The notes under the pieces: model-generated
The model's database searches: none
The model's input: the letters and a program-made list of their open reading frames with translations, nothing else
Told to the model about the DNA's origin: nothing
Shown: positions 6,723 to 55,489 of the stretch, in pieces
Position numbering within the stretch: position 1 is the first letter of the stretch
Layout of the letters: each line of letters begins with the position of its first letter
Made by a program: the position numbers and the translations under genes
NCBI GenBank assembly: GCA_000165345.1
Contig: CM000434.1
Coordinates: 64,001 to 128,000 of the forward strand
Reading direction: 5' to 3'
Length of the DNA: 64,000 bases

Positions 6723-6787
6723 ACACGTAATAAATAAATGATTAAAATCAGGCGGGCCAAGCTGGCGCCTGTGAGGACTGTGGGGGA
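6723..6787. promoter_or_regulatory. ACACGTAAT plus a GC island with E2F-like GGCGGG/GGCGCC cores, about 500 bp upstream of copB ATG
   Basis: acacgtaat 6723-6731; caggcgggccaagctggcgcctgtgaggactgtggggg 6749-6786 is a striking GC-rich block in DNA that is otherwise above 85% AT. Confidence 0.3.
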
Positions 6788-6794
6788 ATATAAA

Positions 6795-7595
6795 TCAACT
6801 CCATTTTTCTTGATTTTTTTTAAAATTCAAATGATTTGATTTAGTTTCAGATATTAATGATTCTATGACATTTTCTTCTTGTACGATTAATGTTTTTTCT
6901 TTTTTTTTATGTTGATTTCTGATTTTCAATTCTTGTTCTTTATTTTTGATACCATTTTCATGTTTTTTTCCTTCATCAGCTTTAATATCTTGATTATAAT
7001 AATCTTTTCTTGAATCAAATTCCAACTCTTCATCATCTCTTTCTTCTTTTTTTTCTTCTTCATCATCGTCATCATCGTCATCATCATCGTCATCATCATC
7101 ATCATCTTCGTCATCTTCAGCTTCATAATCCTCATCATCATCAGAATCATACAATGAATCATCATCTAATGGATTACTGATAGTATTTAGAGAAGTATTC
7201 TTATCAAAAAAAGAGTCATTTGAGATTTGAGAATTAATATTTACTAATTGAGACTCATCTTTTTCTTTAGAATATGAATTTACTGGAATTATTAAATTAT
7301 GATTATTTTTATCATCATTTTCTTCTTCTTCATCCTCTTCTTCATCTTCCTCTTCTTCTTCCTCTTCATCTTCTTCTTCATCGCCTTCTTCATCATAATT
7401 ACCATTAAAACTACTATACAAGTTATTTATTAAATCATCTGAAAATGTTAAAGGAAGTGAATAATCAAAAATAATATGAATATTCTCTGGAAATGATTTA
7501 TTTAAAATAAAAAATTCATTGATTGGATTTCCTGTCAAATTGATCTCCAATTCAAATAAATTATCATTAACTAATTCCAATATAAAATTTCTCAA
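6795..7595 (-). CDS. Hypothetical protein segment: LRR-cap-like N-part followed by an extremely acidic (D/E-rich) tail. No in-frame ATG for about 200 codons, so probably a downstream exon of an unresolved gene model
   Basis: ORF starts with TTG directly after a stop. LELVNDNLFELEINLTGNPINEFFILN is followed by long poly-E/D tracts. The architecture (LRR then acidic tail) is reminiscent of ANP32-type proteins but the similarity is weak. May belong with ORF 7696..8649, although no canonical GT...AG intron joins them. Confidence 0.3.
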   Translation of the reverse strand: MRNFILELVNDNLFELEINLTGNPINEFFILNKSFPENIHIIFDYSLPLTFSDDLINNLYSSFNGNYDEEGDEEEDEEEEEEEDEEEDEEEENDDKNNHNLIIPVNSYSKEKDESQLVNINSQISNDSFFDKNTSLNTISNPLDDDSLYDSDDDEDYEAEDDEDDDDDDDDDDDDDDDEEEKKEERDDEELEFDSRKDYYNQDIKADEGKKHENGIKNKEQELKIRNQHKKKEKTLIVQEENVIESLISETKSNHLNFKKNQEKWS

Positions 7596-7695
7596 TATTA
7601 TTCAAGAAATTGCTCTTAATAAATTATTAGAAAAATCAAAATAAATTTTATAATTGGACAAATTTAATCCATTTTTATTATTCAATATAATATTA

Positions 7696-8649
7696 TTAAG
7701 AAAATTCTTTCATAATTAATAATGCATTTTCATCATTTAAATGGTTACTATGAAATGATAATATTCTTAAATTCATCAAATTTGTTCCCATTTTCTCCAA
7801 ATTCATATATTTTATTATATTATTTAAATAAACCTGATTTCTAATTTTCTTTTTAGTATCATCAAATAATAATAATTGACTTATATTTAATTCACTCAAT
7901 TTTATTTCCATTTTATTTAATATCAAATCAAATATATTCCTTAATTCTATTTGATCTATTACAATATTTACCAAGTTAAAACTTAATAATTTTTCTTTTA
8001 TTAAATTCATATTATTCATTATTTTAGATAATAATGAAAACATAAAACTTTTATTTTCTTCCATATTCTGATTATTATTATTCAAAATTTTTCTTCTTTT
8101 ATTATCAATTCTTAAAGTTTGAGATTTTGATATATTATTATAATAAAATCTACAATCTTTAAAATATAATTCTAAACCATATTTTCCATTTAAAGTAATA
8201 TTATTAAATAACCAATCTAACCAATAATTTATTTCATAATTATTTAATATTATATTACTATTAATGAATTTTATTTTATTAATATTCTTAAAAATTATTC
8301 TTGAAAGATTCTCATTTATATCATTTAATAATAATTCATCCAATTCAATATTTTCATTAATATCTAATATTATCAATTCTTGTATATTATCACAATATTC
8401 AGTAATTGTATATTTATCATAATTTAATCTTAAAAATTGTATTATTTTAAATAAACCAACAATATTTGTTTTTAATTTAGTCATATATTTTGAATCTTTT
8501 TTGATTATTTTCCAAATCTCATCATCATTAATATCTTTTAAATCCATTTCCTCACATATTAATTTCCTTTTAATTCGTATTCTTTCATTTATTGGTAAAT
8601 TCTCCAATATTATTTCTTTTATTAAATATTCTTCTTTATTATTTACCAT
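7696..8649 (-). CDS. Hypothetical leucine-rich-repeat-like protein (317 aa)
   Basis: True ATG at 8649. Repeated LxxLxLxxN-type segments (LILDINENIELDELLLNDINENLSRI, LMNLRILSFHSNHLNDENALL). No specific family recognised. Confidence 0.4.
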   Translation of the reverse strand: MVNNKEEYLIKEIILENLPINERIRIKRKLICEEMDLKDINDDEIWKIIKKDSKYMTKLKTNIVGLFKIIQFLRLNYDKYTITEYCDNIQELIILDINENIELDELLLNDINENLSRIIFKNINKIKFINSNIILNNYEINYWLDWLFNNITLNGKYGLELYFKDCRFYYNNISKSQTLRIDNKRRKILNNNNQNMEENKSFMFSLLSKIMNNMNLIKEKLLSFNLVNIVIDQIELRNIFDLILNKMEIKLSELNISQLLLFDDTKKKIRNQVYLNNIIKYMNLEKMGTNLMNLRILSFHSNHLNDENALLIMKEFS

Positions 8650-9059
8650 TTAAAGAAAATAATAATTTCTATTAAAATTAATAAGCATTAATGAAAATAA
8701 TAATAATATTAATAATATTTCTTTCTTTCTTACTTTAACAATAATTTCTTAATAATTATTTCTGCATATTATTTGAATTTTAATATTTGAATAAATAATT
8801 TATTTATTGATTAAAATAATAATATAACAATTATTATTACTTAGAAATAATAATTTCTTATTCTTAAACTCTTCAAAATTCAAAATATTTTTTTTTTCCC
8901 AACAATTATTATATTTTGTGTTCTTTCATATATAGTTTCATGTATACCTTAAATAATATATTTTTTTAATAATAAAAATTCCACGTCATTATTCCCTTTA
9001 TATTTATTTTATTTTTATTACTTTTTTTTTTATTAAATATTTTCAATATATTTTAATTA

Positions 9060-53356: not shown

Positions 53357-53366
53357 ATCAAGTTGC

Positions 53367-54044
53367 TCAATACAATTGACAACATTGATTATTTTTTTTA
53401 GCACTTCTATAAAATTGATAAGAAGCAGCACTCAAATCAGAACTTTTTTGCATTAAAGTATCCAAAGTTTCACCACGATGAAGTAAATCTTCAATATTTT
53501 TAAGCATAACATCTCTAACTTCATCTAAATCTTTTTGTACTTTAAAAATTTTATCATTATTAAGTGGATCTTGATATTTTTTAAAAATTTCATCACATTC
53601 AGGAATTGATTCATTTTGATCTTTAGTAATAATATTACTAGCAATACTATTGTTATTATTATTACTATTATTATTATTAGTAGTAGTAGTAAAATCTGAA
53701 GAAAATAATACATCATGATTTTTAGAAGAATCTATATATGTTTTTAAATATTCATTTAATAATGAAAAAGCACATCTTACAGGATAATCTGGACTTGTAA
53801 TACAACATATACCTAAACCATTATTTGATATATATATATGGCAATGTCCAATATCTTGTGGAAAAGTTACTGTAACTCTATTTCCTTGTTGTACTCTTGA
53901 ACATAATAATCTACTATGAAAAGCTATATGTTCTTGTATTGTTTTTCTTTGAAAGAAATTATAATCTTGTAAATTATAATTACTTGTTAATAATATTGGA
54001 TGTTCTTTATCCCACTTATAAAGTAATACACTTAGTAATTTCAT
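53367..54044 (-). CDS. ykt6: R-SNARE Ykt6 (longin domain, SNARE motif, C-terminal CCxxx lipidation motif)
   Basis: ATG 54044. MKLLSVLLYKWDKEHPILLTSNYNLQDYNFFQRKTIQE… closely parallels Ykt6 (MKLYSLSVLYKG…VLLKAAYDVSSFSFFQRSSVQEF). SNARE heptads (VQKDLDEVRDVMLKNIEDLLHRGETLDTLMQKSSDLSAASYQF). Ends …KKNNQCCQLY, comparable to the Ykt6 CCAIM prenyl/palmitoyl motif. Contains an Asn-rich insertion. Confidence 0.8.
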   Translation of the reverse strand: MKLLSVLLYKWDKEHPILLTSNYNLQDYNFFQRKTIQEHIAFHSRLLCSRVQQGNRVTVTFPQDIGHCHIYISNNGLGICCITSPDYPVRCAFSLLNEYLKTYIDSSKNHDVLFSSDFTTTTNNNNSNNNNNSIASNIITKDQNESIPECDEIFKKYQDPLNNDKIFKVQKDLDEVRDVMLKNIEDLLHRGETLDTLMQKSSDLSAASYQFYRSAKKNNQCCQLY

Positions 54045-54134
54045 CTTTTTCTATTATTTTTATTATTAATATTATTGTTATTATATTATTGTTGTTATTA
54101 TTAATATTAAATCTTTTTTAATTATTATTAGTAC

Positions 54135-54182
54135 ATTATTATTATTATTATTATTATTATTATTATTATTATTATTATTATA
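54135..54182. repeat. (ATT)n microsatellite, about 16 units, just upstream of ykt6
   Basis: Read directly. Confidence 0.9.
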
Positions 54183-55489
54183 TATAGAATATTATATTAG
54201 AAATATTACTTTAATAAAAATTTGTTCTTTTTGTTTTGTTTTGTTTTTTTTTTTTTAAAGCCTTGTTATCCTCCTTGACAAACGAATTACAAAAAAAAAA
54301 AAAAGTTAATTTAAAGATGTTTTTTTTTTTTGTTTAATTTTTTTTTATTTACCGGAAACCCCTATTAATATTAAATAAAAATTAATATGATGCACAAACT
54401 TGCCCGCCTAAATGTGGCGCCGAAAGGCACAATACGGTACATGCGAAATTATCAGTATATAAATAATAATATTTGTGCAATTTAAAGGTATCGTAAATTA
54501 TGAATGAGGAAATAAATAAAAATGTAATTTTTTTTTTTTAAATTATAAATATTATAATGGGTAACGTCTAATTAAATAGTCAGATCTGATTTTTAGATTA
54601 TGCAATTATAATTAATTACTTGTAAATAATATGTATAAATAAATAAATAAATAAATAAATATATATATATATATATATAAATACATAATATATTTACATA
54701 CAATATTATATATATGTAATGCAATATAAACATTTTTTTATAATATATATATTACATATACATTTATGTAAATGTGTATAATATAAATATTAATAAAAGT
54801 TGATTTCTTTTTTTCCTTTATAATTAATGTGCATAAAATAACAGAGAAAAAAAAAATAGACAAATAAATTACATGAATTCCAATAAAATATATTAAAAAG
54901 TTGGAAATTAATTGATTAATAAAATTTTGGATTAAGACGGAAAATAATAAAGGCGAAGATTATTAATTATTTATATATACAATAATAATATTAATTATTA
55001 TTGTTGATATTATTAACATTACTACGAATAATTAATTGAATTAGTCAGAAATTTAATAATCAAGAAATAACAAATCAATTCATCTTTAATTTAAAATCAA
55101 CTCATCAAAGATTATATTTGGAAAAATTTTGGATTATTTTTAATATTTTTTTTACTATTATTAGTACATTAATATTATTTTCTAATTTATTATTATTCAA
55201 AATTATTATTATTATTACTATTATTACTATTATATAATAATAATATTAATTATTATTATTATTATTATTATTATTAATATATTATCACTTGGCAAAGTTT
55301 ATTATATCAGGAAAGATAAAAACTTGACTAATTTAGATTTTAGAGTTATTGGGAATTAAACTTGAAAATGAAATTTAATCTTTAATTTATATATTAAAGC
55401 TTCATTAATATATATTATGTATATAAAAAAAAAATAATAAAGATTTTATAATCCAAGACCAATTATTAAGTTGAGTTAAGTTCATTCAA

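Follow-up and report, generated by a model that had tools for sequence, protein, structure and literature searches.

What are the short G+C-rich boxes that recur in the intergenic DNA of the 64,000-nucleotide stretch of Cryptosporidium parvum analyzed here (contig CM000434.1, positions 64,001 to 128,000; hereafter the window)? Judged by the order of accessions, the window appears to belong to chromosome 6. An initial annotation of the sequence read the boxes as E2F-like sites of promoters. We conclude that they probably belong to an E2F-like cis-element that earlier work had described in the promoters of C. parvum, and that the finding is real but already known for this species, having been published in 2003, 2013, 2014, and 2025. 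Their enrichment, their restriction to promoter-containing regions, and the purifying selection on their core are observed directly.

The window is 99.0-99.75% identical to the 1.31-Mb C. parvum chromosome records CP044417.1, CP141123.1, and CP029785.1, the IOWA-ATCC reference among them (BLAST, >20 kb, N counted as mismatches). Its low G+C suggested a dictyostelid or a Plasmodium-like genome, a reading rejected by a search with its beta-COP reading frame, which pointed to Cryptosporidium; three proteins of the window are found with exact sequence on the above records. Shifted by roughly +61,524, the window corresponds approximately to positions 61.5-125.5 kb of CP044417.1, which is contained in the C. 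parvum reference assembly (GCA_015245375.1), and all the protein orthologues retrieved for its genes are from Cryptosporidium. Gene boundaries are those of called genes from the clean C. parvum records, mapped onto the window, and genes were named by Pfam where possible. Bounded by these called genes, the intergenic DNA amounts to 15,589 base pairs (bp). We defined a site as a G/C run holding an SGCGS or SCGCS core, and a GC island as 5 or more G/C in 6 bases. Expected counts come from shuffles (dinucleotide-preserving for the site clusters), 1000 for the intergenic counts and 100 for the consensus strings searched in the whole window.

The 13 intervals listed in the initial annotation all hold a core of the GGCGGG, GGCGCC, or GCGCGG type. 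Four of them (those of TTGGCGCCAAAA, GAAGGCGCTTC, TAAGCGCGGAAG, and TTGCCCGCC) were off by 1-3 bases and are given here with corrected starts. By the definition above, the intervals yield 15 sites, as follows (strand given where one was assigned):

6749 to 6759: CAGGCGGGCCA box, about 530 bp upstream of the copB ATG and 36-46 bp beyond the stop codon of the upstream 617-amino-acid gene
6761 to 6771: GCTGGCGCCTG box, the second of the copB pair
10998 to 11008, plus strand: TTTTGGCGGGC box, in the divergent promoter of a 447- and a 613-amino-acid gene
15002 to 15015: TTTTAGCGCCAATT box, upstream of the gene of a NIPA-type Mg transporter, with GTGCACA immediately 5'
15090 to 15103: AATGGCGCGCAAAC box, upstream of the NIPA gene
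15141 to 15151, plus strand: TTAGGCGGGAG box, upstream of the NIPA gene
19555 to 19563, plus strand: TTTCCCGCC box, an exact TTTSSCGC in a divergent promoter, 155 bp upstream of a Hikeshi-like 195-amino-acid gene
31035 to 31049: AAATGCGCGGGCTTT box, in the divergent promoter of Fip1 and a single-RRM protein
35094 to 35104: TTTGGGCGCCA box, in the divergent promoter of a 377- and a 120-amino-acid gene, with GCATGCACA immediately 5'
42088 to 42100, plus strand: TTTTGGCGGTAAA box, in the divergent promoter of an acetyl-CoA transporter and a POLD3-like gene, 312 and 348 bp from the two ATGs
45603 to 45614: TTGGCGCCAAAA box, palindromic, 435 bp upstream of the ATG of a ZIP transporter
46470 to 46480: GAAGGCGCTTC box, 583 bp upstream of the ATG of a phosphodiesterase
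46511 to 46522, minus strand: TAAGCGCGGAAG box, reading TTCCGCGC on the minus strand, about 40 bp from the GAAGGCGCTTC box
54400 to 54408, minus strand: TTGCCCGCC box, in the divergent promoter of a longin SNARE and a protein kinase
54414 to 54426: GTGGCGCCGAAAG box, the second box of the SNARE/kinase module

The boxes far exceed chance expectation. Site clusters number 15 in the intergenic DNA, for 1.43 +/- 1.16 expected; the shuffle maximum is 9 and none of the 1000 shuffles reached 15. The pentamer SSCGC/GCGSS occurs 22 times between genes (2.05 expected), a count that no shuffle out of 1000 equals. Three consensus strings taken from published work and independent of the window are also enriched when searched in its whole length: TTTSSCGC with at most one mismatch (43 observed, 17.7 expected), DTTGSCGCCH with at most one mismatch (19 against 3.2), and TTTGGCGGGAAV with at most two mismatches (9 against 3.1), in each case with none of the 100 shuffles reaching the count. 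In an unbiased ranking of 6-mers, the leading words outside low-complexity sequence include TGGCGC, GGCGCC, and GGCGGG (Poisson p from 2e-9 to 1e-7).

These counts bear on one alternative, namely that the boxes result from chance or base composition, or are fragments of small-RNA genes. The sites are short and degenerate, and the islands at 6749-6786 and 54400-54430 are long, which speaks for it. The shuffles speak against it, scans of the window for tRNA (ARAGORN) and for Rfam families gave no match, and the sites are kept at the orthologous promoters of seven other species (see below). We regard both chance and RNA-gene fragments as refuted, and consider this explanation exceedingly improbable.

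Composition also enters in another form, as the boxes could act through DNA structure or nucleosome exclusion, as short spikes of G+C in very AT-rich DNA with no sequence-specific reader. Pentamers made only of G and C are over-represented as a class in the intergenic DNA (46 observed, 16 expected), and part of the raw enrichment is therefore due to the clustering of G/C; moreover, the sites sit where open chromatin is expected. Yet E2F-type pentamers make up 22 of these 46, while they represent only 8 of the 32 possible types, and the other GC islands form distinct sequence classes (G-box, ACCGGT). Moreover, it is the exact bases and not the composition that are selected: TGGCGG, GCGCC, and CGCCTAAA are invariant amid diverged flanks. 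Because the conservation is base-exact, we hold a purely structural role to be very unlikely.

The initial annotation overstated how exclusively the core accounts for the GC islands. It had found the core in nearly every island, and we find it in only 15 of 43, or 15 of 36 when leaving out the 7 islands of a CT-rich tandem repeat at 53.1-53.35 kb; the remaining islands are G-boxes, ACCGGT boxes, and others. The A+T content of the intergenic DNA, given as above 85%, is 81.9% by our measure. The tandem repeat itself (53100-53351; CCTCCC/CCCCTC islands) has a unit of about 48 bp and takes up the space where the phosphodiesterase and SNARE genes converge. The orthologous region of C. felis is 74% G+C.

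Where do the boxes lie relative to genes? The view that they punctuate promoters agrees with their distribution, which is restricted, among intergenic regions, to those containing promoters:

Divergent intergenic regions: at least one site in 7 of 7, 1.26 clusters per kb
Tandem intergenic regions: at least one site in 2 of 9 (upstream of copB and of the NIPA transporter), 1.14 clusters per kb
Convergent intergenic regions: at least one site in 0 of 8, 0 clusters per kb
Coding DNA: 0.22 clusters per kb

Divergent and tandem regions together are thus 5-6 times denser in sites than coding DNA, despite the higher G+C of the latter. The absence of sites from convergent regions is weak evidence on its own, because these regions total only 2.5 kb. 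The sites are found 150-600 bp from the nearest start codon, numbering one to three per promoter, with no consistent orientation.

We compared the orthologous regions of C. meleagridis, C. ubiquitum, C. canis, C. felis, C. ryanae, C. xiaoi, and C. andersoni, as well as the copB block of C. felis and C. muris. Gene order is identical in all the regions compared, and the sites are kept in seven other Cryptosporidium species. The pattern per promoter recurs in C. meleagridis, C. ubiquitum, C. canis, C. ryanae, and C. xiaoi, and the copB and SNARE/kinase promoters retain sites in C. muris and C. andersoni too. In the block that runs from the PP2C to the SNARE gene, the number of boxes per region is equal in the six AT-rich species: one between the 377- and 120-amino-acid genes, one between the acetyl-CoA transporter and POLD3-like genes, three between the ZIP and phosphodiesterase genes, and none in convergent regions or upstream of the BSD-domain gene (between it and the acetyl-CoA transporter gene). 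The sole exception is an extra CGCGG in the region between the POLD3-like and ZIP genes of C. xiaoi.

At the level of single bases, alignments of the POLD3-like, ZIP, and SNARE/kinase promoters show the cores as invariant islands amid diverged DNA. The POLD3-like promoter has the same TGGCGG in all 7 species aligned, and C. meleagridis and C. canis read TTTTGGCGGGAAA. The TTGGCGCCAAAA box upstream of the ZIP gene is identical in C. parvum, C. meleagridis, C. ubiquitum, and C. canis, with its core kept in C. felis, C. ryanae, and C. xiaoi. At the place of the GAAGGCGCTTC box, GGCGC or GGCGG is retained in 6 species, and TAAGCGCGGAAG aligns with TTTRGGCGGGCAA of C. ryanae and C. xiaoi. The double box of the SNARE/kinase promoter, CGCCTAAA-N-GCGCC, is invariant in C. 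parvum, C. ryanae, C. xiaoi, and the gastric C. andersoni. The box at 35094 has conserved counterparts in C. meleagridis (TTTAGGCGCC), C. ubiquitum and C. canis (both TTTTGGCGCC), and C. felis (TTTTGGCGGC). The latter species also has CCCCGCC in the divergent region orthologous to that of the 10998 box, and CCCGCC, TTTTGGCGCCAAA, and a looser GCCGC pentamer upstream of the NIPA gene.

Some comparisons are less informative. The DNA upstream of copB could not be reliably aligned for C. parvum, C. felis, and C. muris, and the comparison of this region is limited to whether boxes occur and how many: C. felis has a GGCGCC and CCCGCC pair about 500 bp out, and C. muris has three GCGCC/GGCGC boxes. 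In the 23-kb locus of C. muris, the 8 core hits between called genes are all intergenic, and its 18 kb of coding DNA contain none. The core is not enriched in the loci of C. felis (17, for 13.2 in shuffles), where no enrichment is visible because these loci are 35-44% G+C; this species is informative through aligned positions only. A screen for exact 7-mers shared by three species under-detects degenerate boxes and was not used as a test.

These boxes resemble a motif that has a history in C. parvum. According to the account given in PMC3734150, an E2F-like motif was first noted by Bankier et al. 2003 in the non-coding DNA of chromosome 6. Oberstaller et al. 2013 then identified DTTGSCGCCH (motif 3) and TTTGGCGGGAAV (motif 4) as the most over-represented motifs upstream of C. 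parvum genes (PMC3734150), and a follow-up in 2014 reported that 161 of the 200 co-expression clusters of the species have the motif upstream (PMC4117751). In sporozoites, profiling of open chromatin by ATAC-seq (assay for transposase-accessible chromatin with sequencing) showed the E2F motif to be dominant in the peaks, more than half of which are bidirectional promoters (bioRxiv 10.1101/2025.01.17.633476). Finally, a review of 2025 gives the motif as [A/T][C/G]GCGC[G/C][A/T], with E2F/DP as the presumed factor, and credits Bankier 2003 and Oberstaller 2013 (PMC12246861). The sites of the window share with this motif family the organism, the consensus, the upstream placement, and the frequent use in bidirectional promoters, with no essential difference; the chromosome, too, appears to be that of the first description. 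An SGCGS core is present in 15 of 15 sites, and consensus, over-representation, and organism all agree.

The factor that would read the boxes is suggested by the gene content of the species. C. parvum is reported to have two E2F genes (cgd1_1570 and cgd6_1430) and two DP genes, and Cryptosporidium to be the only apicomplexan genus that retains E2F/DP (PMC3734150, bioRxiv 10.1101/2025.01.17.633476, PMC12246861). The resemblance extends to the canonical E2F/DP sites of animals and plants (TTTSSCGC; TTTCCCGCC and TTTGGCGGG in Arabidopsis), with which the boxes share the [C/G]GCGC[G/C] or GGCGGG core, the T-rich and A-rich flanks, the function in either orientation, and the location close upstream of genes; one of the targets in the window is likely a subunit of DNA polymerase delta. 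Taken together, the enrichment, the orthologous conservation, and the literature on the species support the E2F-like interpretation of the initial annotation, whose two refutation checks (enrichment over background, conservation in orthologous promoters) both came out in its favor; like the published work, we infer that E2F/DP binds the boxes. In the mechanism we propose, E2F/DP heterodimers would bind the cores (GGCGCC, GGCGGG, or GCGCGG, whose 5' flanks weakly favor T and whose 3' flanks weakly favor A), mostly between divergent genes and in nucleosome-free promoter DNA. Once bound, they would contribute to establishing or activating transcription, either one-way or bidirectional, although we infer the direction of this effect, like the identity of the binding protein.

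A cell-cycle role, which the initial annotation implied, is not borne out by the flanking genes. Most of them have disparate housekeeping functions, and they encode coatomer beta, transporters of Mg, Zn, and acetyl-CoA, Fip1, the RRM protein, the SNARE, the phosphodiesterase, and kinases; the only one related to replication, and perhaps the only exception, is POLD3-like. Here the boxes differ from canonical E2F/DP sites, as they serve mostly housekeeping genes and are found, in the literature, upstream of most expression clusters. Because of this, the classical Rb-E2F cell-cycle switch is probably not their logic. Since so many unrelated housekeeping genes are served, the boxes would rather represent a general promoter element of the genus than a switch specific to S phase.

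Several observations weigh against reading the boxes as E2F/DP sites. The initial annotation matched them to TTTSSCGC, a consensus that is enriched when one mismatch is allowed; the exact string is found in only 2 of the 15 sites (0.28 expected), as most sites retain the core and not the full run of T. Several conserved sites even reduce to five-base cores, such as TGGCGG or GCGCC. The T/A runs that were said to flank the core amount to a weak preference, with a modest asymmetry (T 85 and A 65 on the 5' side, A 81 and T 57 on the 3' side). The box is absent from 7 of 9 tandem promoter regions and is therefore not universal. The E2F and DP genes lie outside the 64-kb window, and most regulatory components of Cryptosporidium are without functional validation, according to the 2025 review (PMC12246861). 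Finally, every well-aligned box has a second conserved block alongside (GCCCACA, CGAGACA, ACGGTACATG), so that another factor may contribute, or even be the main reader.

This last point leads to the most serious alternative, in which the boxes are real promoter elements read by another factor (a C2H2 zinc-finger, Myb/SANT, or ApiAP2 protein) and their likeness to E2F sites is a coincidence. Two of the papers on the motif report no E2F/DP binding experiment (PMC3734150, PMC12246861), the departures from TTTSSCGC and the paucity of cell-cycle genes among those served fit such a reader, and the conserved adjoining blocks hint at composite sites. The comparison with ApiAP2-bound motifs (TGCATGCA, the G-box G.GGGG, GCACAC) is instructive in this respect. 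These motifs are likewise short, over-represented upstream of genes, and present in the same intergenic regions of the window, but their sequences differ, and their binding by AP2 has been shown by protein-binding microarray. The same survey of the AP2 domains of C. parvum lists E2F among the over-represented motifs that are explicitly non-AP2 (PMC4117751). In addition, the motif dominates upstream regions and open chromatin in precisely the one apicomplexan genus reported to retain E2F/DP, and its best-conserved versions, namely TTGGCGCCAAAA and the TTTTGGCGGGAAA of C. meleagridis and C. canis, look like textbook E2F sites. We thus consider a different reader unlikely, and retain E2F/DP as the probable one.

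The blocks that accompany the boxes are the following:

42104 to 42110, plus strand: GCCCACA block, 3 bases after the TTTTGGCGGTAAA box and 7 after its GGCGG core, with CCCACA invariant in 7 species
45631 to 45637, plus strand: CGAGACA block, about 17 bases after the TTGGCGCCAAAA box, invariant in 7 species, a shared 7-mer
54431 to 54442, plus strand: AATACGGTACAT block, adjoining the double box, with CGG.ACATG invariant in 4 species and shared 7-mers

These blocks may be partner sites or elements of transcription start sites. We tentatively suggest, as a possibility on the weaker side, that the E2F-like box is one half of two-part promoter modules, whose second invariant block lies 3-20 bases off (as in AAAGGCA..ACGGTACATG), and that some promoters without the box use the palindrome ATACCGGTAT instead. 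After the SNARE/kinase double box, positions 54423-54442 read AAAGGCA..AATACGGTACATG.

The palindrome near ATACCGGTAT is the most enriched hexamer of the intergenic DNA outside low-complexity words. TACCGG occurs 13 times (0.65 expected) and ACCGGT 9 times (0.27 expected), a count reached by none of 1000 shuffles; CCGG is found at 430, 469, 13341, 28923, 34695, 34734, 35139, 39907, 39974, 46034, and 54352. The palindrome ACCGGT is confined to promoter-containing regions, several of which have no E2F-like box, and 6 of 7 species share the copy found 84-154 bp ahead of the BSD-domain gene. It is not among the 25 motifs of Oberstaller 2013 (PMC3734150), in the 2014 AP2 paper (PMC4117751), or in the table of the 2025 review (PMC12246861), and a literature search for it returned only primers.

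Words related to AP2 motifs are found in the same intergenic DNA. GTGCACA, GCATGCACA, and ATGCACA, which resemble the AP2-type motifs TGCAT and GCACAC, occur 0-4 bases 5' of three boxes (at 14995-15001, 35085-35093, and 54389-54395). The two other motifs published for the upstream DNA of C. parvum genes, the G-box and TGCATGCA, are enriched as well. The G-box G.GGGG is present 10 times between genes (3.4 expected), including at 643-648, 6780-6787, 10938-10948, and 34753-34767. Words of the TGCATGCA type, CATGCA and TGCATG, reach 17 (3.1 expected), and GCATGC occurs 6 times (0.5 expected); their positions are 13289-13352, 28859-28866, 34799-34806, 46105-46121, and 46600-46606.

As to the names of the flanking genes, Pfam or search hits confirm copB, Fip1, and the single-RRM protein, and the hand-spliced product of the 195-amino-acid gene matches the Hikeshi-like_C domain (E 2e-5, just below the gathering score). 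The POLD3-like label of the 408-amino-acid protein is plausible. Two of its orthologues, from C. meleagridis and C. xiaoi, bear the name DNA polymerase delta subunit 3 in UniRef, and the protein contains a GYLVVED motif and ends in QQTLNSFF; no match to POLD3 was found by Pfam (E up to 10) or by a PDB sequence search. We take the QQTLNSFF end to fit the PIP-box consensus.

The composition and state of the window itself call for some remarks. Its G+C is 22.7%, while the mean of the C. parvum genome is 30.1-30.2%; the region is at 22-23% in the window and in the three clean assemblies. The syntenic loci of C. felis are at about 41-44% overall. Within the genus, the block has thus undergone a strong shift in base composition, with gene order and promoter boxes unmoved. 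The window is a degraded copy of the locus. Single N bases are scattered in it, the reading frames of copB and of the 617-amino-acid, BSD-domain, and acetyl-CoA-transporter genes are broken by indels, and a run of 2501 N bases corresponds to only about 257 bp in CP029785.1. The defects noted lie at 3835-4290, 20653-21248, 21981-24973, 39330-40520, and 61650-61745.

Gene control in Cryptosporidium is poorly understood, and its reported retention of E2F/DP sets it apart from the other apicomplexan genera. To a motif that was known, this analysis adds base-level evidence of the boxes, their number per promoter, and adjoining blocks that stay constant across eight species, from intestinal to gastric ones. 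The conservation also yields a short list of well-supported sites for binding or mutagenesis work. Should both the two-part arrangement and the use of the palindrome hold true genome-wide, the promoters of Cryptosporidium would come down to a few architectures, with at least one undescribed element and its reader.

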